Counted from the stretch's first letter, positions 4,502 through 40,550 are shown. The stretch is 64,000 nucleotides of DNA from an uncultured Acidobacteriota bacterium (GCA_963718845.1 CAVRAD010000017.1:403154-467153); one strand, 5' to 3'. Notes: generated by a model from the letters alone, not told the origin. Numbers and translations are program-made.

Positions 4502-5371
4502 CTATCCGCCCAGCACGTTATCTATAATCCGCGCGGCAATCGACTGGCCGGTGGTCTTCTGCAGGCCGCGCCAGCCGGGGATGCTGTTGATTTCTATCAC
4601 ATAGGTTTTGCCGTCTTCTGCCGGCATGAGATCCACTCCCGCATAATCCAGTTCGAGCAGGCGTACGGCTCGTAAGGCCAGAGCTTCCATTTCGCCGCTT
4701 AACGCAATGGGTTCAACCTTCGCGCCTTTGGAATAGTTAGTTTTCCATCCTGTCCCGGTGCGAAGCATCGCTGCCACGACCCTGTCGCCCACGACGAAAG
4801 CTCGGATATCTTTCTGAAAGTGCGGCAGGTATTCCTGAATGTAGTAGATATAACGGTTCAGTTCCCAGGCGCGCAGCACGCGATAGGCCGTTTCTTCATC
4901 GCTGATCCGCACCATGCCTTTCCCTTCCGATCCGAAGAGAGGCTTGAGGATCACGTCTTTCATCTCAACGCAAGCCGCCAGCGCCGTCCGGAAATCCTCC
5001 GTAACGATCGTGCGCGGCGTCGGAATCCCGGCATCGGCCAGCAGAAAAGAAGTGTAATATTTATCCACGGTGCGCTCGATGGATAAAGCAGAGTTGACGA
5101 CGCGTACGCCCAGGCTCTCCAGCCGGTGCAAAACATCCATGCGGAAGATGATCTGTTCGAGCGAGCCCGTTGGAATCGTGCGCACGAGCAGAGCCCTGCA
5201 CTCCTCCAGGCTCTCGCCGCCTGCATGCAGCGCAGGCCTTCCGCCCACGGAACCCGCCAGCCGCGCAATCGGAAAATAAACCGGCTCACAGCTTCTTTGA
5301 CGCACCGCCTCCTCGAGTGCCTGAACGTGATAGCCTCTTTGTGAAGACAAAATTCCTATTTTGGCCGGCAT
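4502..5371 (-). CDS. RimK-type ATP-grasp alpha-L-glutamate ligase (MptN-like, tetrahydromethanopterin glutamylation candidate)
   Basis: 289 aa with RimK-like sequence (VILKPLFGSEGKGMVRI..., YAGVDLMPAEDGKTYVIEINSIPGW). It is the last gene of the fwd/mch operon, 3 nt after mch. Confidence 0.7.
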   Translation of the reverse strand: MPAKIGILSSQRGYHVQALEEAVRQRSCEPVYFPIARLAGSVGGRPALHAGGESLEECRALLVRTIPTGSLEQIIFRMDVLHRLESLGVRVVNSALSIERTVDKYYTSFLLADAGIPTPRTIVTEDFRTALAACVEMKDVILKPLFGSEGKGMVRISDEETAYRVLRAWELNRYIYYIQEYLPHFQKDIRAFVVGDRVVAAMLRTGTGWKTNYSKGAKVEPIALSGEMEALALRAVRLLELDYAGVDLMPAEDGKTYVIEINSIPGWRGLQKTTGQSIAARIIDNVLGG

Positions 5372-5373
5372 GG

Positions 5374-6348
5374 CTAGGATTCCAGCAGCGAGGAACGCAG
5401 GAGAGACGGATTCAACCGGCCGGCACGGAAGGTGCGCCCGGAATTCAGGTCATTGATCTCCACCTGCGCCGGGCTGAACAGCATGCGGTCGATCTGATAA
5501 AAATCCCCGTTATAGCGCTGAAACAGTTCATAGAAAGGAGTGCCATAATCCCGCGAGCTTTCCGAGGGGACCTTTGCGATCAGTTCCGCCAGCGCCCGCT
5601 CCTCCGCGCGGACGGTGTAGAAGACCTGTGCGCCGTACAGAATCGCGTCGTTGGTCCGCCCGATAGCGTGTAAATCGTCCGCCGCCGCAGGCGCCAGCGG
5701 GCACACGCCGGAGGCCGAGGTAACCGAGCGCACGTCGAATCCCAGTTCCACCAGTTTGTGCATACCGGTTTCCGCAGACCGCGCGGCGACTTGAATGGAT
5801 CCGACCAGGGAGGCGGTGGGAGCTATTACCAGAAACAGGTGCTCCGGTTTGACACCGCATTTTTGCGCCACAAAATCCGCCACGTCCTCACCCGGCAGTG
5901 TGCGGCCTTCAAGCATCAGGACCGCGGTTTCAGCCTGGTCTTTATAATCCAGCTTCTCGTAAATTTCCTCGCTGGCGCATAAAGCGCGCGCAGGACCGGA
6001 TCCGATGGCGAAATAGCGATCCAGTTTAACTGCCCAGCCGGCATACTGCGAAGCCATACAGGCGATATGAGGGCAACTGACCCGTACTTCAACTGCCGGA
6101 AGCCAGAAGCCGGAAGATGGATCGGACTCCGGACCAGGAAAGTTTTGATGTGTGAATCCAACCTGCCCCAGTCCGCCGAGGCACGCGCAGGCGAACAACC
6201 GTCCTGCTTCGAAACTGCCCGGCACCTGAACGCCGGCATCAAGCACCGTAGCGCCATTCTTCAGTTTTTTCGCATCGAGGCCGAGTGCTTCCCGCTCCTC
6301 TATCATCTGTAGGACAATCGTTGCGGCACGCTTATTAACGCTGATCAT
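5374..6348 (-). CDS. mch: methenyltetrahydromethanopterin cyclohydrolase
   Basis: 324 aa: ISVNKRAATIVLQMIEE...NGATVLDAGVQVPGSFEAGRLFACACLGGLGQVGF matches the Mch family pattern. It overlaps the upstream fwdC-like gene by 14 nt. Confidence 0.9.
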   Translation of the reverse strand: MISVNKRAATIVLQMIEEREALGLDAKKLKNGATVLDAGVQVPGSFEAGRLFACACLGGLGQVGFTHQNFPGPESDPSSGFWLPAVEVRVSCPHIACMASQYAGWAVKLDRYFAIGSGPARALCASEEIYEKLDYKDQAETAVLMLEGRTLPGEDVADFVAQKCGVKPEHLFLVIAPTASLVGSIQVAARSAETGMHKLVELGFDVRSVTSASGVCPLAPAAADDLHAIGRTNDAILYGAQVFYTVRAEERALAELIAKVPSESSRDYGTPFYELFQRYNGDFYQIDRMLFSPAQVEINDLNSGRTFRAGRLNPSLLRSSLLES

Positions 6349-7144
6349 AAACCAGGATTTCTCCTTTCCCCAACCGATTGAAATCTCCGCTGTAGCGTCG
6401 ATAGAAGCCCGTCACCCATGCTTCAGGCACAGGCACTCCCTGTATCTGCAATTCCCGGAAGATCAGCTTCAGAAAATCAGGCTGATAGCTGCAATCATAG
6501 CGGAAGGTAGGCAACAGTTCCGGCGGCTGAAAAGCAATGATTGTGCCGCGCAGCAATCCCGCGCCCGCGCGGATACCCATCTTTCCGAAAACCATAATGG
6601 ATCCGGCGATCATGAAAGCCCCGGCGAAATCCCCCGCATCGCCTTTGACCACGATCGAACCTCTCCGCATTGCGGCACCCACTTCATTGCCGGCATTCCC
6701 TTCCACGATGATCAGGCCGCGATTCATCCCGTACCTGCTGCCCCGGTAGGCGCCGCCTAGACCATGGCCGGCATTGCCGCGGATATGAATTTTTCCCCCG
6801 GTCATCTCCGCCCCGGCCCAGTCTCCCGCATTCCCCAAAAGGTCGACTTCGCCTCCCTGCATCCAGGCTCCCAGATGCATGCCCGCATCGCCGTTAATCG
6901 TGACTTTGCCTTGCTTCATCCTGGCCGCAATATTTTTAACGCGGCTCAAGTCCCCATTTAGAACAACCTCTGCCGTCCCGTCGCCGTCGATCTTAAAAAA
7001 ATCACCCAGCAGAGCCGCTTCGTTGCCGTGCATCACAGGCAGAGCGGCGATTGCAGCAGCGGTTTTGCCCAAAAAGTTGTCCGGCGTAATGGCTTCAGCT
7101 TCCAGAGGCGCATCCGGTTGCCGTTTTAGCGTCAGTGTCGTCAT
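6335..7144 (-). CDS. fhcC: formylmethanofuran dehydrogenase subunit C-like (FwdC/FhcC)
   Basis: 269 aa with repeated GNAG/GDAG...GA.M.GG.I beta-helix motifs typical of FwdC. Confidence 0.85.
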   Translation of the reverse strand: MTTLTLKRQPDAPLEAEAITPDNFLGKTAAAIAALPVMHGNEAALLGDFFKIDGDGTAEVVLNGDLSRVKNIAARMKQGKVTINGDAGMHLGAWMQGGEVDLLGNAGDWAGAEMTGGKIHIRGNAGHGLGGAYRGSRYGMNRGLIIVEGNAGNEVGAAMRRGSIVVKGDAGDFAGAFMIAGSIMVFGKMGIRAGAGLLRGTIIAFQPPELLPTFRYDCSYQPDFLKLIFRELQIQGVPVPEAWVTGFYRRYSGDFNRLGKGEILVYDQR

Positions 7145-8040
7145 ACGGGAGAGACCTCGTCTAATATCTTGCGCAGATGGAATTTGAACTTTCCCAGATT
7201 GCCCCCGTAGTTACCCGCGGAAATACCGCATATCCCGGGAATACACGCCGCCAGAATCCCGGCACGGGTCGCCCGTTCAATGGACGCCACATCCAGTCCG
7301 TCAATGACGATTTCGAGCACAGAGTGAACACCCTCGGGCAACGCGGACGCCACGAGACCCCGCAGACTTGGGCAATAGGCATGGTTCGTGGAGGCTTTTA
7401 GAAACTTATATTTCGAACCTACCTTGCTGCCGCTGCGCACGATTCCTCCGGGAAAAGGCATGACAACTCCAGGCACACGGTGCATCGCTTCCACTGCCAG
7501 TTCGGCTGCCTCGAGCGTCACCGGCTGATGACTGCCCAGTATCAGAAAATTACCTCCGCCGATAGCGCGCTGCACACCAAATTTGTCCTCGACCAGAAAT
7601 TCCCCTTCCATCACCGGAACACGCCAGTAGCGTCGGCCGCCGATCACTTTGCTGCTCTGGAAACCATCGCCGAAAAAACGCAACTGCCCGCCGATGGAGA
7701 CTCTCTCTTCGCCCGGCAAGCCATTGAAACAGGCAGCGGACGGGCAGGTCAGCACACACTGTCCGATACGGGCTATCAGCTGGCGCACGAGAGCATCCTT
7801 GCCCATGGCGAATATCAGGACGCTCACTCCCGGCCGCCCGTCAGGCGTCTGCTCGACGTCGCCTTCGATGCCCGCTTCGCAGCCGCAGGCGATGACGGAA
7901 GTGGCAAATCCCGTCATTTGAACAGCGGCTTCCCGCGCCCATTTGCGATTGGCTCCTGTGATGAGTATGCGCGCGCACCACATGCCGAAAGCTTCGGCGA
8001 AGGTATCTTCAATTTCCACACCGTTGATGCACTGTGTCAT
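7141..8040 (-). CDS. ftr: formylmethanofuran:tetrahydromethanopterin N-formyltransferase (Ftr/FhcD)
   Basis: 299 aa: INGVEIEDTFAEAFGMWCARILITGANRKWAREAA...TGFATSVIACGCEAGIE is the Ftr signature region. Confidence 0.9.
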   Translation of the reverse strand: MTQCINGVEIEDTFAEAFGMWCARILITGANRKWAREAAVQMTGFATSVIACGCEAGIEGDVEQTPDGRPGVSVLIFAMGKDALVRQLIARIGQCVLTCPSAACFNGLPGEERVSIGGQLRFFGDGFQSSKVIGGRRYWRVPVMEGEFLVEDKFGVQRAIGGGNFLILGSHQPVTLEAAELAVEAMHRVPGVVMPFPGGIVRSGSKVGSKYKFLKASTNHAYCPSLRGLVASALPEGVHSVLEIVIDGLDVASIERATRAGILAACIPGICGISAGNYGGNLGKFKFHLRKILDEVSPV

Positions 8041-9668
8041 AGGTTTCCGTTCCCCATAATTTCGTGAGGTCGCGGCAAATAGTGTTCCAACTGCACCGGA
8101 TAATTTTCAAATTCAATCGTGTAATACTTGTCAAAAAAATCCCGAATATCCTTTTCCACCGCCGGGTCATATCCCGGCGAAACGTACAAGGTGCGACCAT
8201 AGGTTTCCTGTCGAATGTGCCCCTCTTCCACAAGAACCTGCCCTTCCTTGATCACATATCGGGGCGACGCAAACATCTTTTCCTTATCTTCGTTTTTGTC
8301 GTAGATGGTCACATCGGCATCCGCGCCAATTCCCAGGTGACCCTTATTATTCAAGCCCAGGATGCGGGCCGGAGCGGCGCGCGTAATAATGGCGATTTCA
8401 AAAAGAGAATATTCACGGTCGTGATCAGGGAGAGTTGTTTTCGCAATCGCTTTCGGATTCACTTTTTTCAACGCTTCGCGCCGGTATTCCCGGTCCATCA
8501 GCAGGCGAATGATTTGCGGGTAGGCGACAAACGAAGCCCCGTTGGGATGGTCGGTGGAAAGCGCGATGCGCCATGGATCCCGCAAGAGCAGGAACCATTC
8601 CAGACCAATTGCCCATTGCGTCGCGTGCACGTAGTTTTTGTCCTTATATTCGATGGGCACGATGCCGCATCCTTCTTCATTTTCCACATCCACATTGACC
8701 CATTTGCGCCCACTGATCTTGTGGAGCATATATGCCAGCGGTCCGTCCCCTGTCATCGACGTAGTATCTCCGAACATCACCTGGCCGACATCCACAGTCA
8801 GATTGGGATGCGTGTTCACATATTCGGCCAGCTCGGGAACGCGCGAGGTAAACAGGCTGCCCGGTTGGCCGCCGTAGCTGTGAAATTGGATATGCGCAAA
8901 ATGCCCGTTTCGGCCATCCAGTGTTCTCATCGTCTCAAAAGTGGTTTCCCAGTTGCCGGCAACGCCCAGGTTATTGCAGTGAATGTGCACGGCATGCGGC
9001 AGGCGCAGTTCCATGCTCGCCTCTGCCAGTTCCTGGATAATCCGGCGCGGCGTAACATTAAACCCCGTAACCTCATCATCGAGGCCGTGCGCGTTGCCCA
9101 GGGATTTCCAGAGTTCGACTCCGCCGGGATTAACCAGTTTCACGCCATAGCCTTTGGTCGCCTGCAGTAGCCAGGCGACATAGTGCCGCATTTTTTCCCG
9201 CTCTCCCGCGGCGATCTGCCGCATGATGAATTCGTTGTTCCCCATCAGCACAAAAAAGCCCTTGTCGATCACAGGGGTATCCATGAACTCTTCATGCGCA
9301 TGGCGAGCGGCCATAGGAGGCACGGCGGCATCGAATGCAGTCGTGTAGCCCATCGCCGCATAGCGATAGCCGGTGGCAAAAGTCGAGGGCACCGTTTTGC
9401 CGACGCCGGAGCGGGTCAAGGACGTGCGCGGCACCGGATCCAGTCGATGGTCTTCCGGGCGCATTTTGCGGGCGGTATTTACTTTGGGCCCGGCAATGTG
9501 CGCGTGCATATCGACTCCCCCCGGCATAACGACCATTCCGGACGCGTCGATCGTCCTGCATCCGCTGACCGAAGCAACGATCTGCCCATCCTCGATGCAA
9601 ATATCGCGCACATCCCCGTTTATGCCGTGCGCCGGATCATAGACTTCGCCGTTGATAATCTTCAGCAT
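8037..9668 (-). CDS. fhcA: formylmethanofuran dehydrogenase subunit A-like amidohydrolase (FwdA/FhcA)
   Basis: 543 aa, amidohydrolase-type GGVDMHAHIAGPKVN and FwdA-like overall length. Start and stop overlap the neighbouring genes. Confidence 0.85.
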   Translation of the reverse strand: MLKIINGEVYDPAHGINGDVRDICIEDGQIVASVSGCRTIDASGMVVMPGGVDMHAHIAGPKVNTARKMRPEDHRLDPVPRTSLTRSGVGKTVPSTFATGYRYAAMGYTTAFDAAVPPMAARHAHEEFMDTPVIDKGFFVLMGNNEFIMRQIAAGEREKMRHYVAWLLQATKGYGVKLVNPGGVELWKSLGNAHGLDDEVTGFNVTPRRIIQELAEASMELRLPHAVHIHCNNLGVAGNWETTFETMRTLDGRNGHFAHIQFHSYGGQPGSLFTSRVPELAEYVNTHPNLTVDVGQVMFGDTTSMTGDGPLAYMLHKISGRKWVNVDVENEEGCGIVPIEYKDKNYVHATQWAIGLEWFLLLRDPWRIALSTDHPNGASFVAYPQIIRLLMDREYRREALKKVNPKAIAKTTLPDHDREYSLFEIAIITRAAPARILGLNNKGHLGIGADADVTIYDKNEDKEKMFASPRYVIKEGQVLVEEGHIRQETYGRTLYVSPGYDPAVEKDIRDFFDKYYTIEFENYPVQLEHYLPRPHEIMGNGNL

Positions 9669-10953
9669 GACTGCAACTCCTTCACGCGCGCGAGCAAGCG
9701 GCCGAGCACCTCTTCATCCGACGGATAGCGCGAGGCCAGAACCCTGCGCATATGAATCGGGACACTGTCCATGCGGTAAATCGTCCCCTCCACATGGATT
9801 CCTGCCGTCGCGGTAATGAAGACAATCCTGGCAATTTTTGTTGTCTCGCTCTCGTGCGTATCCAGAGCGATCGTGGGAATCTCGGCCATGCGGCGCGCGG
9901 CTTTGCCCGGAAGGCTGGAGACCGGATCTGCGGCCACCACAAGCGCCGCATCCGCTTCGCCCCGGCTGAAGACATCCACTACCGTATATTCGCCGGGATT
10001 GAATCGTGGATATCCCAGGCTGAAATTGACTCCAAAAGGATACCCGGTCTGCCAGGCGAGGACGTTATCTATGCCGGTAACATTGCCGTGGCCGCGCATC
10101 GGCATCAGCGCAAATTTTGCATGGCGATTCAATGCGCGGACCAGCAGGAAAGCCGCCGAAGTATTAAAATGCTTGCCGCGCGTCTGAGTCAATCCCTGGC
10201 CTACGAACAGGACGCCGAATTTGCAATGCATCATCCGGTCCGCCAGATCCGTCAGTTGATCGAGTGTCAGCCCGATCTCCTCTACCGCGGCCTTATCCAA
10301 TTTTTGACCGTTGACCAACGCTTGCAGCGCCCATAATGCTTCAAAATCTTTGCCTGGCTGGATCTGAAGGAAAATATCCGCAGCGCGCGGCGCTGGCGGT
10401 TGTTGCGCACATCGACAAGCACCACGGTCCGGCCCTTGCGGCCTTCCGGAATAAACATTCCTTTGGGAGTCACCGCGTAGCGCGCCATGTGGCGGGGATG
10501 GGACTCTCCGGGATTGGATCCCCAGTAGACAACCAGATCGGCGCGATTTTTCACTTCGCCCAACGTGCAGGTCGGTTCTCCCACGCCCTGCAGCGCCATG
10601 CCGGATGGTCCGTGGCACACAGACGTACAGCAATCGATGCAACCACCCAAGGCTTCGGCCAGCGCCACCGATTTGCGTTGCGCCTCGCAGGACGTGCTGC
10701 TCAGTCCGTAAATAAATGGGTAGCGGGCTTTCGCCAGATGCCGGGCTGCCGCTTCAATGCCTTGATCAAGAGTGGCCGGTTGACCTTCAATTCTCACCAC
10801 CGGCAAATCCGAGGGCGCCCCGTGGCTCAAAAACCAGGCCTTGCCCAAAACACAGGCATTCTTTGTCTGAGTGATGCGATCATTTTCCACCGTAACACTG
10901 ATATCGTCACAGACGCATCCGCAGAAGGCACACACTACATGATCTATTTGCAT
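9662..10953 (-). CDS. fhcB: formylmethanofuran dehydrogenase subunit B-like (FwdB/FhcB), one frameshift near 10385
   Basis: Two ORFs (10282..10953 and 9662..10642) join into one FwdB-like protein. The N-terminus MQIDHVVCAFCGCVCDDISV...KNACVLGKA carries a CxxCx3C...C pattern, followed by CCTSVCHGPSG. The junction reads VVLVDVRNN / AADIFLQIQPGKDF. Confidence 0.8.
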
Positions 10954-10966
10954 CGAGGTTCCCCGT

Positions 10967-11359
10967 TCAGGATTTCCCGTTTCCCGTTGAAGCCACTGAA
11001 CCGGCCAAGGGAGACGAGGAACGGCTAGCAGGCATCATTTCCACCTGCAAATGTTTGGAGTCGGGCATGCCGGAAGCGCAGGTCTCGCCTCCGACCAATT
11101 GATTGCAAACAGAGCCGAAAGCTATAAAGGACATTCCTTCCGGAATGTCCGCCCCGCGGCATTTGACTTCGGCCATGCCGAATTCGGTTTTGATGCTGAC
11201 CATAGAGCCCTCGCTTAAGCCCGCACGATCCATATCCGCCCGACTCAGATCAATCACATTGGTTGCTTCCCTGTATTCCGGATGTTCCTTTCCTGTAGAG
11301 ATGCCGGTGCCCTGTTTCGTGGAACGTCCTGTTATCAGGGTTAAACGCAAACTATTCAT
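10967..11359 (-). CDS. fwdD: formylmethanofuran dehydrogenase subunit D-like (molybdopterin dinucleotide-binding domain protein)
   Basis: 130 aa: LTLITGRSTKQGTGISTGKEHPEYREATNVIDLSRADMDRAGLSEGSMVSIKTEFGMAEVKCRGADIPEGMSFIAFG...SGMPDSKHLQVEM fits the FwdD / MopB C-terminal barrel pattern. It sits immediately upstream of fwdB. Confidence 0.7.
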   Translation of the reverse strand: MNSLRLTLITGRSTKQGTGISTGKEHPEYREATNVIDLSRADMDRAGLSEGSMVSIKTEFGMAEVKCRGADIPEGMSFIAFGSVCNQLVGGETCASGMPDSKHLQVEMMPASRSSSPLAGSVASTGNGKS

Positions 11360-12494
11360 AAATCCATTCCTTAAGCAGCGCGGCCCTTTGAATCAACTCG
11401 GCCCGAGTTTCGTCAGATGTTGGCCGGCTCGCAAGTACCGTGCAGATGGGATTTCCCTTGTGCAACGTCTCGCCCGGCGCAGGGATGTCCCGCGCGCCAC
11501 TATCCAACCATCCTTTCGTGTCCGGCGCAACAGCATTTCTCTCGGCAAAAAGGATTGCTTTGCCGAAGAAAGTCCTGTTACTAAGCACGGCTTCAAGCCG
11601 GAATTCCGGCAGGCTGCCAGACAACACAGCCTGTGCGTGCAGATGGAATATCGGCAGTTCATACGCGGTTTCGATCAATTCCATAGATGCCGAATAACGC
11701 GGATTGACTTCAGTCAGATATACCTTGTCCCCGTTGAGAATGAAGTCGATGCCGTTGACACCCGTCAGGCCATAGGCGCGCGTAAGAAATACGGCCAACC
11801 GCCGGACTTCGGCCACGAGAAATGCTGCTCTGCCGGGGTCAGCAATTTCAGGCAAGGGCAGAATGTTGCCGCAATAGCGAAATCCCCGTGAGCCGAACGC
11901 ATGCATTCCTATCAACTGCTCGGTGATCCCAAGCACAATGCAGTCCTGTCCATTGGCTACGAAAGATGCAGAGCACGCTTTCCCGGGAATATATTCCTGA
12001 AGCATAAAGCGGGTCCCGGGAAATTCCGAGCTTCTTAGAAAATTTACCCCATGCCCTCCACCACCTGACACGGGTTTGATAAGCCAGCGCCTGTGTGAAT
12101 CGGCTGTGCGTTTGTCTGCAGCGAAAATCGTCTCCGGAACCGGGAATCCCGCCCGCTCGAGCCGCTCAAACAGGTCAGCCCAGTGACGCACTGCGGCGAC
12201 AGCGTGTGGCGAGTTCCCCACGATTTTCCGGCTTCCGGCGAGACGTTGGATGATCTGGGGATAGTTTTCTAAATTTGATGTATAGGCAACGGCATCGTAG
12301 GAAAACTGCCGGCTTGCTTCGTAAAGCGCAGGCGGACTGTATCGAATATTGAAGTCACGCTGCAAGGCATAGGCCTCGGCGAGTGATTGCAGATCCCGGT
12401 CACCAAAAGCATCCAGGGCCAGCACTGTATACCCGCTGCGTATGGCAGAGGCCACCATTGCGCGCACGCTTATGCCTACGACAAGTATCTTCAT
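11352..12494 (-). CDS. ATP-grasp ligase (MfnD/OrfY-like), methanofuran or methanopterin cofactor biosynthesis candidate
   Basis: The likely start is MKILVVGISVRAMVASA (ATG at 12494). The fold is ATP-grasp_3-like (GGGGHGVNFL..., GVNGIDFILNGDKVYLTEVNPR). It is the first gene of the fwd operon and overlaps fwdD by 8 nt. Confidence 0.6.
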   Translation of the reverse strand: MKILVVGISVRAMVASAIRSGYTVLALDAFGDRDLQSLAEAYALQRDFNIRYSPPALYEASRQFSYDAVAYTSNLENYPQIIQRLAGSRKIVGNSPHAVAAVRHWADLFERLERAGFPVPETIFAADKRTADSHRRWLIKPVSGGGGHGVNFLRSSEFPGTRFMLQEYIPGKACSASFVANGQDCIVLGITEQLIGMHAFGSRGFRYCGNILPLPEIADPGRAAFLVAEVRRLAVFLTRAYGLTGVNGIDFILNGDKVYLTEVNPRYSASMELIETAYELPIFHLHAQAVLSGSLPEFRLEAVLSNRTFFGKAILFAERNAVAPDTKGWLDSGARDIPAPGETLHKGNPICTVLASRPTSDETRAELIQRAALLKEWIYE

Positions 12495-12574
12495 AACGTA
12501 GTGATCGCCGATAAAGGCGGTTAGTCTATCACAGGCAAATGCCGGAACGAGCGGGCCTGAACGCATTCTGGGAA

Positions 12575-12684: not shown

Positions 12685-13800
12685 ATGGTGAAACGCAGGG
12701 TATTCGGCATCTCCCTGATTGCGCTCATCGCAGGAATCATACTTGAACAGGTCAAAGCCGGCGGACCGACGAGCGGCGCCGAAATTTACCGTTCCGCTTG
12801 CGCAGCCTGTCACGGGCCGGACGGCAGAGGCGCGCCCGACAGTACGCGAGCGTTTGAGAAACCGGACACATTCCCGGACTTCACTAATTGCGTGGCGACA
12901 GCACGCGAAGCGGATGATTTCTGGAGCGCCATCATTCACAACGGTGGTCCAGGCAGGGGCTTTTCGGAAATCATGCCCTCTTTCCGCGAGGCGCTCGCCG
13001 ATGATCAGATCAAGATGGTGATAGGGCACGTGCGAAATTTCTGCCGCGAGCCCGCATGGCCTCGAGGCGAACTGAATTTTCCGCGAGCTCTTGTTACCGA
13101 AAAAGCGTTCCCTGAAGATGAAATGGTGATGGACTTTGCCGTCAACGCCGAGGGGAACGCGGGCATCACAGATAAAATTGTTTATGAAAAGCGACTAGGC
13201 GCGCGCGGGCAGCTTGACATAAGCCTTCCGTTCAAGTTCCAGGATTCGGGCAACGGCAACTGGGATAGCGGCGTAGGAGATCTCGTTGCCGGATACAAGC
13301 ACGTGCTGGTAAGCAATCTCCGCTCAGGTTCCATTTTCAGCATCGCGGGCGAGGTTGTGTTTGCGACCGGCAATGCAGACCGGGACATGGGCAAAGGCGT
13401 CACCGTATTTGAAAGATTCGCGAGCTTCGGCCAGCGTTTGCCGAAAGACTCATTCCTCCAATTCCAGAGCGGCATCGAGTTGCCAACGGACACGGATATC
13501 GCAAACCGTGCGGTGTTCTGGCGAACCGTCCTGGGCAAGACTTTTGCGCCGGACAAAGGACTCGGGCGCCAATGGTCGCCCATGGTCGAATTGCTGGCGG
13601 ATCGCGAACTGGCTGTGGGCGAAAAGATCAACTGGGACATCGTGCCTCAATTCCAGGTGACTCTCAACCGGCGCCAGCACCTACGGGCAAACGTCGGACT
13701 GCGATTTCCGATCAACGACTTCGGGCCCCGGCCCACACAGGTCCTCTTCTATCTGCTGTGGGATTGGTTTGACGGCGGCCTGCGCGATGGGTGGAAATGA
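12685..13800 (+). CDS. monohaem cytochrome c domain fused to a predicted outer-membrane beta-barrel domain
   Basis: 371 aa. The N-terminus has a signal/TM segment (VFGISLIALIAGIIL) and a single CAACH haem motif. The C-terminal 250 aa or so show an alternating-hydrophobicity, beta-strand-like pattern and end with aromatic residues (LLWDWFDGGLRDGWK). Confidence 0.6.
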   Translation: MVKRRVFGISLIALIAGIILEQVKAGGPTSGAEIYRSACAACHGPDGRGAPDSTRAFEKPDTFPDFTNCVATAREADDFWSAIIHNGGPGRGFSEIMPSFREALADDQIKMVIGHVRNFCREPAWPRGELNFPRALVTEKAFPEDEMVMDFAVNAEGNAGITDKIVYEKRLGARGQLDISLPFKFQDSGNGNWDSGVGDLVAGYKHVLVSNLRSGSIFSIAGEVVFATGNADRDMGKGVTVFERFASFGQRLPKDSFLQFQSGIELPTDTDIANRAVFWRTVLGKTFAPDKGLGRQWSPMVELLADRELAVGEKINWDIVPQFQVTLNRRQHLRANVGLRFPINDFGPRPTQVLFYLLWDWFDGGLRDGWK

Positions 13801-13801
13801 A

Positions 13802-15431
13802 ATGCTGAATAATCAACGTTTTCGCTGGCTTTCATTATTAACAGCAGCCGCTGTGGCCGTGTCCATCTGGAGCGCCGAACCCTGCCGTCAAGTCGCCCGT
13901 ACCCAGCTTCCATACCGCCGACCGGTGCATGGTTTGCCATAACGGGCTGACAACGCGGGCAGGCGAGGACATCTCGATCGGCCTTGCGTGGCGTCCGACG
14001 ATGATGGCCAATGCCGCGAGAGATCCGTACTGGCACGCAGGAGTGCGGCGCGAAACGCTCGACCACCCCGAATCGCGCGCGGCAATCGAGGATGAATGCT
14101 CGATCTGCCATATGCCCATGGCCAGGTTTGAATCCAAATCCGCCGGACACGAAGGCACGGTTTTTTCGCATCTTGGGTTCATGCCGGATGACAATGGCGA
14201 CAGGCTGGCGGCCGACGGCGTTTCCTGCTCGCTGTGCCACCAAATCGGAAAAGAAAAACTGGGTGCGCGGGAGAGCTTCGTGGGAGCGTTCGTGATCGGC
14301 GGACCCAATGTGCAGGGCGAACGCCTTGAATTTGGCCCATACGCGCCTGACGCAGGTCACACCAGGATCATGCGGAGTTCAACCGGAGGATTTATACCCA
14401 CTCAATCGACGCACATCCGCGAAAGTGAAATATGCGCTACATGCCACACGCTGCTCACTAGACCTCTCGGCCCGGAAAATAAAGAGATCGGCGAGTTCCC
14501 CGAACAGGTCCCCTACCAGGAATGGCGGCACAGCGCCTATAGCAAACAGCGCAGCTGCCAGTCGTGCCACATGCCGGTAGTTGATGAAGACGTCGCAATC
14601 ACCAGCTTGCTGGGCGTGCCGCGATCAGAGGTTTCCCGCCACACATTCGTGGGCGGCAACTTTTTTATGAAGGGAATTCTCAATCGCAACCGCACCGAGT
14701 TAAGCGTGGCGGCGCTCCCCGACGAACTTTCGGCATCTGCGGAGAGAACAAAGGATCACCTGAAATCGGAAGCAGCGCGCATTTCGATAGTAAGAATGGA
14801 AGTTCGGGACGGCCGGCTGGAAACGGACGTGTCGGTCGAAAACCTGGCGGGGCACAAGCTGCCGACCGCATACCCTTCGCGAAAAGCCTGGCTGCATTTT
14901 GTCGTCCGCGACAAGGATCTTCGCACAGTGTTCGAATCGGGTGCGTTGAGCGCGTCAGGCGCTATTGCAGACAACGACAACGATGCCGATCCTAACCGCT
15001 TCGAGCCGCATTACGCGGAGATCCGTAGTGCGGGCCAGGTGCAGATCTATGAGGCAATCATGGCCGACAGCAAGGGCGCCGTCACAACGGGATTGCTGCA
15101 GGCTGTTCGGTACCTGAAAGACAATCGCATACTGCCGCGCGGATTCGACAAACAGACCGCAGGCTCAGATATCGCCGTTGCTGGCGCAGCACTGGAAGAT
15201 GATGATTTCCGCGGCGGCACCGACCGGATACGATATTCGCTTGAACTCGGCGAGGCTCAGGGTCCATTCCGGGTGGAAGCTGAACTGTGCTACCAGCCAA
15301 TCGGATACCGTTGGGCCATGAATCTAAAACAGTACGATGCCGAGGAACCGCGCAAGTTCATGCGCTACTACGAAGATGCGGCCTCCTCCTCAACAGTGAT
15401 ACTGGCACACACACACGCAGAGTTTCGGTGA
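13802..15431 (+). CDS. pentahaem c-type cytochrome, one frameshift near 13870-13890
   Basis: Five CxxCH motifs: CMVCH, CSICH, CSLCH, CATCH, CQSCH. My translation finds the signal peptide MLNNQRFRWLSLLTAAAVAVSIWSAEP in a different frame starting at 13802. The track ORF 13929..15431 begins inside the first haem motif. Confidence 0.75.
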
Positions 15432-15507
15432 CAGTCACCATAACCTCGAAATTTCCACCTGGTGGTAATTAGGTGACTGACACCAAATTTTAAAGGGAGA
15501 ACTCAAT

Positions 15508-17970
15508 TTGGCGGAACAATATCGACCATGGACTTGGGAAATACCGGAAAGCAGTTCGGTCATGAAACGCAGCATGTCCCGCCAGGATGGATATGAGCGG
15601 GTGAGCGGACATGCCGCGTATACGAGAGATATCCAGCTTCCCGGAATGTTGTACGCCAAGATTCTCGCATCGCCCTATGCACATGCCAGAATCGCAAGCA
15701 TCGATACAAGTCAGGCGGAAGCGCTCCTGGGTGTGCGGGACATACTCAAATACGACGATCCTGACGCGATGACGCAAAACCTCACCGGGACAGACGCCCA
15801 TTACAACATCCTCACGCTTCCCGGCATCAGCGATTTCTACCAGCACCCTATGGGCGTAGCCGTCGTCGCCGACAGTGAGGAACTGTGCGATCAGGCGCTG
15901 CGACTTGTCAGGATTACGTGGGAAGAACGACCGTTTGTTCTGGGCATGGAAGAAGCACTGATGCCGGGAGCTCCCAAGATCTGGACGGAAGTGGAACGCT
16001 TAAAAGCCACGGCCCGGGAGCCCAATACCATCATGGTCGAACAGGTCGATTTCGGAGACATCCAAAAAGGATTTGCCGAAGCGGACAAAATACTGGAATA
16101 CAAAATCACCCGGGCGACAAACTCGCCGGCGGGCGTAGAAGCCATGGCGTGCGTTGCCCAATGGCGCGGTGAGTTTCTGGATCTCTGGATCCACCACCAG
16201 TATAACCAGCAGACGTATCTCAGCTCCGAGACTGTTCCTTCCGTTCAATTCGACGGGGACAACATGGATAATCCCGTCACGATGCCGCACAATCTCGGGT
16301 CTCAGCCCACCAAGAGAGATAATCCTCAACCTCCTTTCGCACCCTGGTCCAAAATCACGCTGACTTTTCCCTTTCAGGGCTCCTGGTTCGGAGGCGTTAC
16401 GTGGCTAGCCTATTCCGCCGCCTTTATCCGACTGGCTGTGATTCTGGCCAAAAGAGCTTCCGGCCGGCCGGTGAAATTGCTGTATGACGAAAGCCAGTTC
16501 TACTGCAACGGGGATGAGGCCGGAACGGTTACCTGCAAAGTGGGTGCAAAAAAAGACGGCACAGTTACGGCGTATCATTGGCATTCGGTAGGAATGAGGA
16601 ATCCTGCGATCGAAAAGACTCCGGAAAGCACACAGATCAAAAATGTCCGCGGTAGCCAGGAGTGGGCCTTCACCAATCAAGGCCATCATCAGTGTTTCAG
16701 GCATGGCGCTGCCGCGTGCGTCCCTCACAATATTATGTTTTCGCGCGTGGCCTCAGAGTTCGGACTCGACCCGACAGAAGTAGCATTGAGGAATGACGGC
16801 TGTCATGGCCACCCATGGGATTGGGTCACCCAGTATCAGAAGGAAAACGGTTTTCCACAGAGGCAAAGCCTCAAAGAGGTTATCGAGCGCGGCAAACAAG
16901 CCATAGGATGGGATCAGAAGTGGCATCCCCCGGGCACCCAAAAGTTGCCCAACGGAAAGATGCATGGGCTGGGCTTCATGTCCATCCATGAATGGCAAGT
17001 GGGAGTTATGTCCGGGCCCGCGCCTCCGCTTGCCTGTTTGATGCTTCGCGATGGGAAAGTCAGCATCATCGGAACACGTTGCGACATGGGTATCACGTCT
17101 GAGTCCGGCTTCCGCCAGTGCGTCGCTTCCGAGATGGGATTGAGATACGACGACACCGTTATTCAAACGCAACGGTCGGATAACAATACCTATGTCTTCC
17201 CGGGCCCCGGTGGCTCCTTCGGCACCACCGGCGCCACGCCTCAACTGGTGCTCGCCGCCAGAGAATTGAAGCGGAAAATTCTGCACTATGCCGTAGCGCC
17301 TAAACCCGGGAGGGGAGCGGGCACCCCCTTCTTCCCGGGAAGCAAACCAGAGGATCTGGATATCAAGGACAGCATGGTGTTTGAAAGGGCAAATCCCAAA
17401 AACCAGCGGACTGTGGATGAAATAGGCAGAGCTTTCTGGAATGCCGATCCGGCAATTTCCCACCCCGTTGTCGGCAGTCTTGCAGATCTGCGGTCCGAAG
17501 GGAAACTGGATCCCAGGCTGTGTTTCATGGCGCGGCAGGCCCATTTCATAGAAGTGGAAGTCGACACTGAGACGGGCCTGGTGGATGTTTTAAATATGGT
17601 GTGCGTCAACGACGTAGGCCACGTTTTTAATCCTCAAGGCGCCGAAGGCCAGCAGTATGGCGGAGCCATTATGGGTCTGGGCAGGAGCGCAACGGAGGAG
17701 AAGATTTTTTGCCCCAGAACCGGCGTAGGGCTGAACTATGATCACGCAGGCTACCACCTGGGAACCATGAATGACTACCCTCCCATCCAATGCATCCTGA
17801 ACGAAAGCCACCTGGGGTATTCCACGTACGGAGCCTGCGGCATCGGGGAGAATATTGGCGCCAGCGTTTCAGCCATCACTTCCCCGGCCATACATAACGC
17901 CATCGGCAAATGGATCTACGACTTCCCCATCACGCCGGATAGGGTGCTCAGGGTGTTGGGGAAAATTTAG
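15508..17970 (+). CDS. xanthine dehydrogenase/aldehyde oxidase family molybdopterin-binding large subunit
   Basis: 820 aa: RQDGYERVSGHAAYTRDIQLPGMLYAKILASPYAHARIASIDTS..., with C-terminal ...YGACGIGENIGASVSAITSPAIHNAIGKW typical of the family. No FeS or FAD partner subunit lies adjacent. Confidence 0.8.
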   Translation: MAEQYRPWTWEIPESSSVMKRSMSRQDGYERVSGHAAYTRDIQLPGMLYAKILASPYAHARIASIDTSQAEALLGVRDILKYDDPDAMTQNLTGTDAHYNILTLPGISDFYQHPMGVAVVADSEELCDQALRLVRITWEERPFVLGMEEALMPGAPKIWTEVERLKATAREPNTIMVEQVDFGDIQKGFAEADKILEYKITRATNSPAGVEAMACVAQWRGEFLDLWIHHQYNQQTYLSSETVPSVQFDGDNMDNPVTMPHNLGSQPTKRDNPQPPFAPWSKITLTFPFQGSWFGGVTWLAYSAAFIRLAVILAKRASGRPVKLLYDESQFYCNGDEAGTVTCKVGAKKDGTVTAYHWHSVGMRNPAIEKTPESTQIKNVRGSQEWAFTNQGHHQCFRHGAAACVPHNIMFSRVASEFGLDPTEVALRNDGCHGHPWDWVTQYQKENGFPQRQSLKEVIERGKQAIGWDQKWHPPGTQKLPNGKMHGLGFMSIHEWQVGVMSGPAPPLACLMLRDGKVSIIGTRCDMGITSESGFRQCVASEMGLRYDDTVIQTQRSDNNTYVFPGPGGSFGTTGATPQLVLAARELKRKILHYAVAPKPGRGAGTPFFPGSKPEDLDIKDSMVFERANPKNQRTVDEIGRAFWNADPAISHPVVGSLADLRSEGKLDPRLCFMARQAHFIEVEVDTETGLVDVLNMVCVNDVGHVFNPQGAEGQQYGGAIMGLGRSATEEKIFCPRTGVGLNYDHAGYHLGTMNDYPPIQCILNESHLGYSTYGACGIGENIGASVSAITSPAIHNAIGKWIYDFPITPDRVLRVLGKI

Positions 17971-18078
17971 ATAAGGAAGACATACTTCAGACATTCGGGA
18001 TTGACTATTTACCGGGCGTACTTCGATACCGATTTCGAAACCGACCCCAACGCCGATTTAGTTAGGAGATATAGGTTC

Positions 18079-18945
18079 ATGAAAAAGATTCTAGTCCAGT
18101 TCGACAGTGACCGTGCACCCAGCGTGTTCGACGCCATCACGGCCTATGATGCCGGAGTGGATGCTCTGCTGCCATACGGCGGCATTGAGCCTCGCGAAGT
18201 CCGCGATCTTGTTTATGGAGCCATGTTCACACGCGGGCCGGAAGACTTGAAAAATACCGCAGTTTTTATCGGCGGGATCGATGTCGGTAAAGGCGAAGCT
18301 CTTCTGCATGAAACGCTGGCCGCATTTTTCGGTCCGATGAGAGTCTCCGTTATGCTCGACTCCAACGGCTGTAACACCACGGCCACGGCTGCGGTCGTTA
18401 AAATCATCTCGAGAGTTCCGGTGCAGGGCCGGAAGGTCGTTGTGCTGGCCGGCACCGGGCCGGTAGGACAGCGCGCCGCCGCGCTTCTTGCAAAAGAAGG
18501 AGCACAGGTAACACTTACTTCGCGGACCACGGAACGCGCTCAAGCTGCCTGCAATGCGCTTAACGCGCGCTTTGGCGCAATAGCGGCACCGGCCGCCGTC
18601 GCCGATGCTGCGGCCACCGCCCGCGTGCTCGAAGGAGCGTGTGCAGTTCTTTGCACGGGCGTCGAGGGCGTGAAGCTCGTATCTGAATCAGAGTGGCAGG
18701 ACCACCCGACCCTGCGCGTGCTGGCCGATGTCAACGCCGTCCCGCCGCTGGGTGTCGAGGGAAGCCAGGCTCATTGGGATGGAAAGGAAATCAGAGGCAA
18801 GCTGCTCTTCGGTGCGCTCGGCATCGGCGGATTCAAAATGAAAGTGCATAAAAGATCTGTCGCCCGCCTATTCGAATGCAATGATCTCGTCCTGGACGCC
18901 GAAGAGATCATGGTCATCGCTAAGGAGCTGGCGGCGCAACAATAG
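18079..18945 (+). CDS. mtdB: NAD(P)-dependent methylenetetrahydromethanopterin dehydrogenase (MtdA/MtdB family)
   Basis: From MKKILVQFDSDRAPSVFDAITAYDAGVDALLPYGGIEPREVRDLVYGAMFTRGPEDLKNTAVFIGG, a strong Mtd pattern. AGGAG lies 10 nt upstream of the ATG at 18079. The track ORF starts earlier, at 18001. Confidence 0.8.
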   Translation: MKKILVQFDSDRAPSVFDAITAYDAGVDALLPYGGIEPREVRDLVYGAMFTRGPEDLKNTAVFIGGIDVGKGEALLHETLAAFFGPMRVSVMLDSNGCNTTATAAVVKIISRVPVQGRKVVVLAGTGPVGQRAAALLAKEGAQVTLTSRTTERAQAACNALNARFGAIAAPAAVADAAATARVLEGACAVLCTGVEGVKLVSESEWQDHPTLRVLADVNAVPPLGVEGSQAHWDGKEIRGKLLFGALGIGGFKMKVHKRSVARLFECNDLVLDAEEIMVIAKELAAQQ

Positions 18946-19936
18946 GACGCACCCGGGCCCCACGGTTTTGAGGCCGAACGCAGAATACCAGCCCGCCGCC
19001 CTGCGAATCCAGGTAAGCCCGCACCTGCCGCTCCAACTGCCGCGCGTTTTCCCTGCCGGCTACCAGCCCGTAGACCGTAGGTCCCCATGAACTCTGCCCG
19101 GCACCGGCAGCGCCTTTTTCGAGAAGGAATTCTACGAGTTTTTCAAGGACAGGCGTGGCGAAGCGGCCGCCCTGAACGGAAGCGAAACAGTCTCCCACCA
19201 TACACTGAATGCTCGTTAACGCCCTGCCAAAATTTGCAATATCCTTTTCGACGACCGCCGGCAGCATTTTCATCAGCAGCACCCAGCTGATCTTTTCCAC
19301 CAGACTGGACGGCGCTACCGGCAGTTGCAGGAATGCGCTGTGTTCCTTTGCACCGCTGAAACCCGGCCCCATATCCGGAATAGCCGTCACAAAATACCAA
19401 TCTCCGGGCATGGGGTAGCGAAATAAAACCGGCGGCACCCGACTCTTCTCTATTTGCCTGGACTGCCTGCTTTCATCGGATACGGCGGATTGGGCCGGAA
19501 GAATTCGATGCCCTCCATCCAATACAAAACCGCCATGCTGGAAGGTGGCAATGCCAATTCCGGAATGTATGCCCCTTTCCACAGCCACGGCAATGTCCGC
19601 AACGCCGAGCTTCAAACCGGCTAGCCGCGCTAATGCCGCACCCACGGCCAGTCCCAACTGAGTTCCCGAACCCAATCCAACATGGGCAGGGATTGCCGTC
19701 AACAGATTCAAATGGGCCCCCTTGGGGACCCCATATCGGCTTATAAAGCGCTCCGCATACGCGGTAATCCGGCTTATTTCTGAACCTTCGACGCGTAACT
19801 CATCGGCCGTCTCAGCCCGTAAGACCAACTGCGGACGATTTATCGCCAAGCCAATGCTCCCATACAGTCGCCCCTGCTCACCGTTGTTATCCAGCAAGCC
19901 CAGATGAAGGCGCGCGCAGGTCCGTACTTCAATCAT
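18920..19936 (-). CDS. mptG: beta-ribofuranosylaminobenzene 5'-phosphate synthase (GHMP-kinase fold)
   Basis: MIEVRTCARLHLGLLDNNGEQGRLYGSIGLAI...PAHVGLGSGTQLGLAVGAALARL. The ATG at 19936 overlaps the DUF447 stop (ATGA). The 3' end overlaps the mtd 3' end by 26 nt (convergent). Confidence 0.75.
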   Translation of the reverse strand: MIEVRTCARLHLGLLDNNGEQGRLYGSIGLAINRPQLVLRAETADELRVEGSEISRITAYAERFISRYGVPKGAHLNLLTAIPAHVGLGSGTQLGLAVGAALARLAGLKLGVADIAVAVERGIHSGIGIATFQHGGFVLDGGHRILPAQSAVSDESRQSRQIEKSRVPPVLFRYPMPGDWYFVTAIPDMGPGFSGAKEHSAFLQLPVAPSSLVEKISWVLLMKMLPAVVEKDIANFGRALTSIQCMVGDCFASVQGGRFATPVLEKLVEFLLEKGAAGAGQSSWGPTVYGLVAGRENARQLERQVRAYLDSQGGGLVFCVRPQNRGARVRPIVAPPAP

Positions 19937-20487
19937 TGTTCCCCCTGTTTTTCGACATATTTGCATACCAGCTGGAATGCCTGTTTTTCTATTTCAGAAC
20001 CTGTTTTATCAACAACCTTCATGTATTGGTTTAAGATATCGGCAGCTTTGTTTCGGCCGTGAAGACCCAGACGAGTAGCCATGATGGCGGCCTCAATAAC
20101 TGCGTTTTTTGCCCTGCAAAAACCAAGAAAATCCTTTTGCCGGCCCCTGTGCAGAACACGGCAGCGAAACTCCGCGCGCTCATCAGATCCGCCGATGGCA
20201 ACCACCTCCAGTTCAAGCCAGGAGCAGGCATCTTGAAAAATGACTCCCGGCACTGTAACCGCTGGGAAACTGGGCAAAATCTCGTCATAAAGCGCGCACT
20301 GGACGAAAGCCAGAACGTTATCGGACAAATTCGCCACGCCATGGCCGCGGGACAACAAGTTGTGGCAGGTCTGGCTGGTGCGGAAGGGTCGCACAATGAC
20401 AGAATCATCGCCCCACGAAATACCCATAGGAGCGAAATTGGGCTTGCCGTTCTCATCAAGAGTGGAAAAGATGGTTTCTAGGATCAT
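19933..20487 (-). CDS. DUF447 family protein (methanopterin-island associated)
   Basis: MILETIFSTLDENGKPNFAPMGISWGDDSVIVRPFRTSQTCHNLL... resembles the DUF447 proteins found in H4MPT gene islands. The alternative TTG start at 20508 lies inside a heptamer array. Confidence 0.6.
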   Translation of the reverse strand: MILETIFSTLDENGKPNFAPMGISWGDDSVIVRPFRTSQTCHNLLSRGHGVANLSDNVLAFVQCALYDEILPSFPAVTVPGVIFQDACSWLELEVVAIGGSDERAEFRCRVLHRGRQKDFLGFCRAKNAVIEAAIMATRLGLHGRNKAADILNQYMKVVDKTGSEIEKQAFQLVCKYVEKQGEQ

Positions 20488-20493
20488 GGCTTG

Positions 20494-20528
20494 GGTTACA
20501 GGTTCCAAGTTTCAGGTTTCAGATTTCT
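20494..20528. repeat. heptamer tandem array, about 5 units (GGTTACA GGTTCCA AGTTTCA GGTTTCA GATTTCT), single arm
   Basis: Read directly. It spans the 4-nt gap between DUF447 and the DHPS-like gene and overlaps both gene ends. Confidence 0.4.
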
Positions 20529-21892
20529 TTAGTGCGTCGGAGTATCTAGCGGGAAACGCGGGACCCTCGGATAGATATCCCCAACGAAGTTCTGCTTCCT
20601 GTACATACTTTTTCCCCAGTTGCATGGCCAGAAGCGCTTTTTGTAGCTCTTTCCCCATGTAAAAGGCCTGCGCGGCGTCCTCGATCTTCAGCTGGTCAAA
20701 AATTCTCCGGATATCCGTATCTTTGATGAAGAGAGCATTATTGAACACATAAATAGAATTGCGATCGGCAAAAATGCGAAAATTGCGGTCGCGGATTTGC
20801 GCCTTCATGGCACGCAGCTCTTCTTCGCTGAAGGTCTCGAAGGGCAGGGTCCTTAACAGTAACCAGCCCGTCATTCAGGTGCTTGGGCAGTATTTTGTTC
20901 CGGCACGCGTAATCCATAAGCCGGCGCGCGATATCGAGTTCGCGTACCGCGCCCCGCGCCCAGCTTATCACTTCCGTGGTGAGGACATAATCAATATCAA
21001 GCTCGCTGATTATACCGGCCATCACTGCCGTGATTCCCGTTGTATCGGCATCGGTCAATTCGGTGAGATTGCCGAGTCCCATGAGCATTTCAGCCTTCGG
21101 ATACTTGCGGCGCATTGCGATAAAGTTTCCTATGGATCCGCTGAAGTCAAACCCGATCGGATTTAAGACAGGATCGATGATGTACGAAACACCCCAGGCT
21201 TCCAATCGGGCGATGTTGCGCTCCAGGGATTTCATTCCCTTCTCAGAATCCGGGATAACGACTACCCTGCATCGCAAACGGCGAGCCAGATCGATGTTTT
21301 GAGAATTTATGCTCAGAACGTAATCCGCTCCCGCCTCGTCCGCACTCAGGATATCGCCCGGGTTGAAGGAATCCACGCTAACAGAGAATCCACGTTTCTT
21401 GAGTGCCTTTATTATCCTGCCAATTCCGGGAAAACCTCCCTGCACCGGGCAACCGAGATCGATGATGTCTGCGCCGTTGGCCTGATAATACGAAGCTCTC
21501 TCCAGTACCTGCTCAAGACTCAACTCATAGGCATTAACGATTTCGGCAATGATTTTTGTCCGATAGGCGCCATAGCCTGTCAGGTTCCTGGTGTTTCCGA
21601 AATATTCAGGAATTTCTTTAAGATTTTTGGGGCCCCGTACCACGTCCACGCCCAGCGCATCGACGATTGGCTTCAGATCGCCCTTGCACAATCCTGGAAT
21701 CATAACCCGATCGCAGCCCCTGCTGTTTGCCAGATGCTTTGCTACAAATCGCGTGTCCATTAACGCGGCAACTGAAATCGGAAGAATGGAGATTTCATAT
21801 TCGAACTCCGAGGAAATTTTTTCCAATGTGTCCCTAAGGGAGGGGGCGGCTAGTCTTCCGGTTACAATCAGATAGCGCGCCATTGCTGCCAC
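20512..21892 (-). CDS. dihydropteroate synthase-like pterin-binding protein with C-terminal DUF4346-like domain (MptH-like), one frameshift near 20870
   Basis: ORF 20738..21892 is DHPS-like (ADIIDLGCPVQGG..., SVDSFNP, VLSINS). It continues in ORF 20512..20874 (LLLRTLPFETFSEEELRAMKAQIRDRNFRIFADRNSIYVF). Confidence 0.7.
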
Positions 21893-28121: not shown

Positions 28122-28225
28122 GCTCTTTGAAGAAGAAGCTGAAAAGAAGGCAAATACTCCATATTTTGCTCGGAAATCGCGATTGCCAGCAGCCGGCCGG
28201 CGGGACGCCGGCGCTCCCAGGGATG

Positions 28226-29768: not shown

Positions 29769-29788
29769 TGCATCCGACTCCCGAATGA

Positions 29789-40522: not shown

Positions 40523-40550
40523 GGTACGGTTTGCCAGGTACGGTTTGCTA
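40523..40550. repeat. 14-nt direct repeat x2 (GGTACGGTTTGCCA / GGTACGGTTTGCTA)
   Basis: Read directly. The second copy contains the stop codon of the DUF1343 gene. Confidence 0.5.

Follow-up and report, generated by a model that had tools for sequence, protein, structure and literature searches.

Does a bacterial operon for one-carbon (C1) metabolism on tetrahydromethanopterin (H4MPT) encode a redox-active formylmethanofuran dehydrogenase (Fwd) of the archaeal type, or a relative of the non-redox formyltransferase/hydrolase complex (Fhc) of methylotrophs? The question is raised by eight genes on the minus strand of a 64,000-nucleotide stretch of DNA from an uncultured soil Acidobacteriota bacterium (GCA_963718845.1, CAVRAD010000017.1:403154-467153; hereafter the window), among which fwdB, the gene of the presumptive catalytic subunit, is interrupted as it stands. 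We regard the locus as probably a functional bacterial version of the archaeal-type catalytic module, made up of FwdB and FwdD and working by an oxidative mechanism, with the interruption as an error of the assembly.

Gene families in the window were assigned from matches of its open reading frames (ORFs) to Pfam and NCBIfam profiles. The fwdB gene (9662..10953, minus strand; TIGR03129) encodes a protein of 429 amino acids (aa) after removal of two extra C's, which are discussed below. This protein begins MQIDHVVCAFCGCVCDD...NAC, and in a HMMER alignment with FwdB of Methanothermobacter wolfeii (5T5I_B in the PDB) its cysteines, arranged as C8-x2-C11-x3-C15...C34, coincide with those of CPFCGTLCDD...NAC. 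Further downstream the stretch CCTSVCHGPSG falls on ASVCHGPS of 5T5I_B, where C113-H114 of the window protein lie on Cys118-His119, and the motif PMRGH is aligned with that of Arg288, R286 being the equivalent residue. The preliminary description of this DNA had proposed both the CxxCx3C...C layout of a [4Fe-4S] site and the position of the metal-ligand cysteine, and in both it was right. At all seven positions (C8, C11, C15, C34, C113, H114 and R286) the window protein, 17 bacterial homologues and FwdB of M. wolfeii have identical residues, and thus the pattern is not due to chance; nor do the key residues vary among 31 acidobacterial proteins.

Whether FwdB belongs with Fwd or with Fhc was judged from the gap of 350 bits between its matches in the PDB. 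The repaired protein aligns almost without gaps to 5T5I_B (401 bits, E 3.5e-119, 46.7% identity over 422 positions) and matches four other solved FwdB chains at 325-397 bits. The match to FhcB (6S6Y_B) scores 52 bits (E 5.7e-13) and spans residues 55-426 only, the first 54 being unmatched. This groups the protein with FwdB and not with FhcB.

Directly 5′ of fwdB lies fwdD (10967..11359, minus strand), and the earlier reading of its 130-aa product as FwdD-like is borne out by matches to Pfam Molydop_binding (PF01568; 1.7e-9), NCBIfam FwdD (2.9e-19) and the PDB entries 2KI8 (7e-15) and 5T5I_D (8e-13). Compared with its orthologue in the closest relative genome (L019, described below) it shows 92% identity and a ratio of nonsynonymous to synonymous substitution rates (dN/dS) of 0.32. 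As judged from these matches, FwdD is the molybdopterin-dinucleotide-binding 'domain IV' cap subunit. FwdB itself is predicted to be the catalytic subunit, with a molybdenum- or tungsten-bis-pyranopterin guanine dinucleotide and a [4Fe-4S] cluster, and to be redox active. The next gene, fwdA (8037..9668, minus strand; TIGR03121, 1.4e-232), encodes the formyl-methanofuran amidohydrolase with its binuclear-metal site. FwdA stands nearer to the archaeal chains 8RJA_A (1.5e-168) and 5T5I_A (1.9e-159) than to FhcA (4.5e-106), and its metal-ligand motifs (HxH, K, H, H and D) are aligned. With FwdA, FwdB and FwdD the catalytic trio is complete.

The eight genes are transcribed in the order ATP-grasp ligase, fwdD, fwdB, fwdA, ftr, fwdC, mch and an mptN-like gene. 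They are tightly packed, and in the ORF map, where fwdB appears as two ORFs, the overlaps are 4-14 nucleotides (nt) and the gaps at most 13 nt. GTDB species genomes, scanned with a restrictive pattern, yielded 20 related loci in Acidobacteriota, Chloroflexota and Ktedonobacter, and in all 20 the order from ATP-grasp to mptN is the same as far as the contigs reach; it is also found in metagenome contigs, and the complete genome OY761556.1 carries the operon. The ftr (fhcD-like) gene (7141..8040, minus strand) for formylmethanofuran:H4MPT formyltransferase was recognized by Pfam FTR and FTR_C (~1e-60 each) and TIGR03119 (7e-130), and its product matches 6S6Y_D (1.1e-95) and 1M5H (6e-95) in the PDB. 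It lies between fwdA and fwdC, with a start/stop overlap of 4 nt on each side. The mch gene (5374..6348, minus strand) for methenyl-H4MPT cyclohydrolase matches Pfam MCH (5e-125) and TIGR03120 (6e-124).

From this set of genes we envisage the following sequence of reactions. Mch and Ftr would convert methenyl-H4MPT by way of formyl-H4MPT to formyl-methanofuran (or formyl-methylofuran), which would be hydrolysed at the binuclear metal site of FwdA to bound formate. The formate would move on to FwdBD, to be oxidised to CO2 at a Mo- or W-bis-pyranopterin site that includes the ligand Cys113, His114 and Arg286. By way of the [4Fe-4S] cluster at the N-terminus of FwdB, two electrons would reach a low-potential acceptor, presumably a ferredoxin, whose gene lies elsewhere. 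The outcome, compared with that of methylotroph Fhc, would be CO2 and reducing power in place of formate.

The C subunit introduces a further element. The product of fwdC (6335..7144, minus strand; TIGR03122, 4e-81) is the beta-helix scaffold subunit, and its C-terminal 121 aa match FhcC (6S6Y_C) at 9e-25, through residue 262. The archaeal FwdC chains match this part at ~1e-11 to 1e-12; the alignments to 5T5I, 9SW6, 8RJA and 7BKB extend little past the beta-helix, and 9SFI_R aligns weakly further. An AlphaFold2 model of the protein (predicted local distance difference test score, pLDDT, 93.9) shows the beta-helix followed by helices at 224-234 and 241-245. A Foldseek search with this model gave the best TM-score and root-mean-square deviation with 6S6Y_C (0.90/0.92 and 2.1 Å), while the E-values slightly favour FwdC. 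The two predicted helices fall at the place where, in Fhc, the helix-loop-helix of FhcC docks FhcD and replaces the beta-hairpin of FwdC (Hemmann et al. 2019, PMC6926001). The FhcC-like C-terminus in the window therefore suggests that Ftr may dock onto the complex, and because ftr also lies between fwdA and fwdC, a Fwd-Ftr complex is suggested.

Hemmann et al. (2019, PMC6926001) proposed a path from Fwd to Fhc in which the redox module is lost first and the formyltransferase joins the C subunit second. A Fwd-Ftr complex, for which the case is suggestive and not proven, would have made the second step without the first. Carried to its end, this leads to a bolder proposal which we hold tentatively and consider somewhat doubtful, namely that the operon encodes a Fwd-Ftr super-complex corresponding to the intermediate postulated by Hemmann et al., with Ftr docked and the redox module active, converting formyl-H4MPT directly to CO2 and passing low-potential electrons to ferredoxin. 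If so, these electrons could feed an energy-converting [NiFe] hydrogenase of group 4, whose genes lie at a distance of 37 kb, no free formate would arise, and the arrangement would concern widespread soil Acidobacteriota and Chloroflexota.

The direction of the reaction was considered from the surrounding C1 genes. An mtdB-like gene for an NAD(P)-dependent methylene-H4MPT dehydrogenase (18001..18945, plus strand; Pfam Mpt_N, 4.7e-32) belongs to the same C1 island, and its product is 79% identical to the orthologue in L001, a complete genome. Beside it is a trio associated with H4MPT biosynthesis, consisting of a GHMP kinase, a DUF447 protein and a DUF6513/dihydropteroate-synthase-like protein (18920..21892, minus strand; Pfam and NCBIfam matches). 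In L001, genes for both Fae and MtdB adjoin the operon. Since the island holds MtdB-like and H4MPT-biosynthesis genes, and Fae and MtdB stand beside the operon of L001, oxidation from formaldehyde to CO2 is the most likely direction. The same enzyme might instead run mainly in reverse, from CO2 through formyl-methanofuran to H4MPT-bound C1 units, in the manner of methanogens and of the Wood-Ljungdahl pathway in its H4MPT branch. The reactions of FwdBD/FwdA can run either way and are reductive in methanogens (PMC6926001), the hydrogenase at 47.9-57.8 kb, whose NiFe cysteine motifs are intact and which is accompanied in the window by a HycI-like protease, is a possible low-potential electron source, and a CO2-related role was weighed by Merino et al. 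(PMC7325909) for an actinobacterial operon. A bacterial NAD(P)-type dehydrogenase and the association of Fae with the operon in a relative are, however, typical of formaldehyde oxidation, Mer, Mtr and carbon monoxide dehydrogenase/acetyl-CoA synthase (CODH/ACS) genes were not seen in the window, and the hydrogenase lies 37 kb off, all of which leaves a mainly reductive role unlikely.

The hydrogenase cluster itself (47960-57838, plus strand) is of the group-4, energy-converting kind and resembles Mrp, Mbh and Ech. It comprises several Proton_antipo_M genes, a NuoB-like small subunit (53910-54353), a fusion of NuoC with the large subunit, a NuoH-like protein, a NuoI-like protein with 2x[4Fe-4S] and a maturation protease resembling HycI. 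Both NiFe motifs, RICGICSHSH and DPCFSCTDR, are present in the fusion. The cluster may possibly act as a sink or a source of ferredoxin-level electrons.

We turn now to the interruption of fwdB. In the window the gene is split between two ORFs, which match positions 1-187 and 190-421 of TIGR03129; it is complete and out of frame. A one-base frame change near 10385 had been noted earlier. Alignment with eight homologous genes from several species rules out a single 1-nt frameshift: there are two extra C's on the coding strand, at ~10405 and ~10390, about 15 nt apart, with a net shift of +2. Each corresponds to a base present in the window only (gene positions 549 and 564, alignment columns 548 and 563). 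The insertions, TGCGC^AAC and CAGCGC^CGCGCGCTG, lie within a GC-rich, partly palindromic stretch (10381..10409, minus strand), and three frames are used in turn, giving VDVR, then TTASA from the 15 nt between the C's, and then (R)AADIFLQ. When both C's are deleted the sequence reads VDVRTTASARAADIF, to be compared with VDVR(K/R)TxSARAADIF in the consensus of the 429-aa homologues. A GC-rich stem-loop is located at the site, at 10395-10381. This hairpin is also the sole exception in a promoter and terminator scan of the operon, which found fewer sites than in shuffled sequence.

The closest genome found, MFD02979.bin.2.93 (L019), is a distinct genome with ~94% DNA identity. Against L019, the dN/dS of fwdB is 0.057 on the 5′ side of the break and 0.054 on the 3′ side. 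L019 has isolated 1-nt indels of its own in fwdB, fwdC and mptN (L019 10702, ~14649 and ~15771-16394), elsewhere than those of the window. Single-base frame changes split other genes of the window too, at least six of them, including topA, the DUF6513/dihydropteroate-synthase-like gene, those of NamZ and a photolyase, several that are antiporter-like, and the gene of the hydrogenase large subunit. In topA (44697-46692) the Toprim domain and positions 2-106 of Topoisom_bac are in one ORF and positions 123-410 in the next, and near 20845 the DUF6513 gene passes from frame -1 to frame -2, as seen in a tblastn comparison and in an isolated 1-nt insertion. Further stretches with split genes are 23365-24550, 40548-41391, 47960-53199 and 54343-56095. 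The window thus looks like an error-prone long-read assembly.

Because dN/dS is low on both sides of the break, topA and other genes are split, the indels of L019 fall elsewhere and a GC-rich hairpin is present, the break in fwdB is probably an artefact, most likely an error of long-read assembly. A genuine and very recent pseudogene, in which the +2 shift is real and the redox module is non-functional in this organism, would agree with the sequence as given, in which two extra bases split the ORF, and with the fact that fwdB of L019 is broken too, at another position. We nevertheless consider it improbable. Beyond the break 240 codons follow without a stop, and they specify a protein 98% identical to that of L019, with the low dN/dS already mentioned; breaks run through essential and unrelated genes of this window too, topA for one; and isolated 1-nt indels are dispersed through the coding DNA of both assemblies. 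A search of 5.8 billion proteins found more than 7,700 relatives of FwdB at E<=1e-20, and the best 120 of these are intact, nearly all 429 aa in length and 75-96% identical; intact homologues of 429 aa, with identities up to 96%, number in the hundreds. A true pseudogene, which the preliminary description had named as a finding that would tell against it, accordingly gives way to an assembly artefact as very probably the cause.

That FwdB and FwdD are a mere scaffold and formate is released to a separate formate dehydrogenase, as with Fhc, would agree with reconstructions of UBA6911 Acidobacteria in which the H4MPT pathway ends in formate (bioRxiv 10.1101/2021.04.09.439258) and with the Fhc-like FwdC C-terminus and ftr placement, but it is scarcely credible given that the Fe-S domain, Cys118, His119, Arg288 and the D subunit, which Fhc has lost, are all kept under strong purifying selection, and that the retention of seven catalytic residues and a separate cap subunit in two phyla is hard to square with a scaffold.

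Several observations weigh against a working oxidative Fwd module. The frame of fwdB is broken as given, and the break may, with low probability, be real. No FwdF/G polyferredoxin or ferredoxin gene was found near the operon in the window, nor within +-10 kb of it in 19 of the 20 related loci. A search for CxxCxxCxxxC in the window and 21 loci returned just two genes: in the window the NuoI-like gene of the hydrogenase, and in L013 an ORF that is unrelated. The FwdF/FwdG polyferredoxin and Mo/W-cofactor genes that had been named as worth seeking were missing from the window, where neither Mo/W transport genes nor genes for synthesis of the bis-molybdopterin guanine dinucleotide cofactor were found in the 64 kb; a Rfam scan of the whole window gave no hit at the gathering threshold, and thus no Moco/Wco (molybdenum or tungsten cofactor) riboswitch. 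A Mo enzyme of the xanthine-dehydrogenase family encoded at 15508-17970 shows just that molybdopterin is made. Fae was not found in the window. An AlphaFold2 model of FwdB, computed for an intact homologue of 96% identity with 31 sequences, was of low confidence (mean pLDDT 62) and disordered at the cofactor regions, and was set aside. Finally, we know of no biochemistry for any bacterial Fwd.

Relatives of this FwdB are numerous. Where the best 120 proteins are named, the name is formylmethanofuran dehydrogenase subunit B or the source is an Acidobacteria metagenome-assembled genome (MAG), and 689 clusters at the 50% identity level match FwdB at E<=1e-30. The nearest of the 50%-level clusters include FwdD-FwdB fusions, for example in Methanoculleus, where the cluster bears the label subunit B / subunit D. 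Several of the nearest cluster representatives (P0241, P0244, P0246, P0248 and P0250), of 570-606 aa and with a FwdB match that starts near residue 145-170, look like such fusions. The Chloroflexota operons carry a gene of ~245 aa resembling short-chain dehydrogenases/reductases between fwdA and ftr (L014 12897-13655; L020 12957-13685); in the Acidobacteriota operons there is just a short spacer at this place. The distribution of Fwd and Fhc in bacteria is also reported to have been discussed by Adam et al. in 2019 (Nat Microbiol).

The enzyme class is not new, and the operon type and its intact motifs are already in the literature. A GTDB survey counted 149 bacterial FwdB against 94 FhcB and inferred transfer from Archaea (Wells et al. 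2023, PMC10100899). Merino et al. (2020, PMC7325909) described an actinobacterial fwdDBA-ftr-fwdC operon and remarked on its Fe-S domain and Cys118, and in the Acidobacteria family UBA6911 the H4MPT pathway was drawn to formate, FwdB/D passing without comment (bioRxiv 10.1101/2021.04.09.439258). The earlier suggestion of archaeal-type Fwd chemistry in a bacterium therefore keeps its support at the level of sequence, from which redox activity may be deduced, while the novelty it implied was overstated, the operon being widespread and published.

The remaining genes of the operon are two ATP-grasp ligases at its ends. The first gene (11352..12566, minus strand) matches Pfam ATP-grasp_3 at 2.4e-27 and NCBIfam MfnD, a tyramine-glutamate ligase, at 6.4e-9, far below the cut-off. 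Its ORF overlaps the start of fwdD by 8 nt, and it stands directly 5′ of fwdD in all 20 related loci. The weakly MfnD-like ligase may have a role in synthesis of the methanofuran or methylofuran side chain. The last gene (4502..5371, minus strand) encodes a RimK-family ATP-grasp ligase (1.5e-60) resembling MptN, the H4MPT:glutamate ligase (NCBIfam MptN, 4.9e-85), with a score of 285 bits, under the MptN cut-off of 350. That two such ligases flank the operon is only suggestive of a polyglutamylated methylofuran, of the kind that a basic patch anchors in Fhc as a prosthetic group.

Divergent from the operon, at 12685-17970 on the plus strand, are genes for a 371-aa cytochrome c protein, a 500-aa multihaem cytochrome and the 820-aa Mo-binding subunit of the xanthine-dehydrogenase family. 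These three genes occupy the interval that separates the operon from the mtdB-like gene; both cytochromes adjoin the operon on the contig of homologue P0002 too, but not in L001. About 6 kb past the H4MPT island are two further antiporter-like genes of the NuoL/M/N type (28107-31808, minus strand). A homologous antiporter-like gene occupies the same relative place in L001 (1-554), the neighbourhood being kept at 77% FwdB identity.

If the module is active, many soil and sediment Acidobacteriota and Chloroflexota end H4MPT-linked formaldehyde oxidation unlike the model methylotrophs: CO2 would be made on the enzyme at a Mo/W-pterin site, reducing power at the level of ferredoxin would be captured, and formate would not be released. 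The annotation of C1 modules in MAGs, which are now drawn to formate, would then change. The locus is, besides, a tractable system in bacteria for work on the transfer from archaea and on the stepwise transition from Fwd to Fhc that has been proposed from structures. The C subunit, which is likely of the FhcC type, and the absence of an electron partner encoded with the operon deserve most attention.

Among known systems, FhcABCD of Methylorubrum extorquens (6S6Y) resembles the window as a bacterial, H4MPT-linked C1 module in which ftr (fhcD) accompanies the A, B and C subunits, and the helix-loop-helix that serves in Fhc as the FhcD-docking element has its likeness at the C-terminus of the window FwdC. 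As the preliminary description had stated, Fhc is non-redox, its B subunit has lost the motifs and it has no D subunit: FhcB carries Ser62 where FwdB has Cys118, its His119 and Arg288 are gone, the N-terminal Fe-S domain is missing, and there is no FwdD equivalent (Hemmann et al. 2019, PMC6926001). The window FwdB, in contrast, keeps the Fe-S domain and the Cys, His and Arg residues, and fwdD is found 5′ of fwdB in 20 of 20 loci. The tungsten enzyme FwdABCDFG of M. wolfeii (5T5I) shares with the window the overall FwdB similarity given above, the Fe-S cysteines, Cys118-His119, Arg288, a separate FwdD, the FwdA metal ligands and the FwdC beta-helix. Unlike it, the window operon has no FwdF/FwdG nearby and includes ftr, the C-terminus of its FwdC is helical and not a beta-hairpin, the host is a bacterium and the direction is likely oxidative.

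The F420-reducing Fwd of Ca. Ethanoperedens (8RJA), whose chains 8RJA_A and 8RJA_B rank with the best matches in the PDB, is an example of a Fwd core that works with another electron partner (PMC11493965); its partner module has no counterpart in the window. The four-subunit FwdDBAC of Methanosarcina acetivorans is a Fwd core that works without the canonical polyferredoxin (cited in PMC7325909). Both of these systems differ from the window in being archaeal and in having no ftr in the operon. Since archaeal FwdDBAC operons are also without FwdF/G (PMC7325909), these subunits are not a strict criterion for membership of Fwd. A parallel in bacteria is the fwdDBA-ftr-fwdC operon of Actinobacteria from the Hakuba serpentinite (PMC7325909), which has the same gene order, no fwdE/F/G, and a FwdB with the [4Fe-4S] domain and Cys118. 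It comes from another phylum, and the Hakuba genomes are reportedly without H4MPT biosynthesis genes, whereas the window has mch, mptN-like, mtdB-like and pterin-synthesis genes beside its operon.

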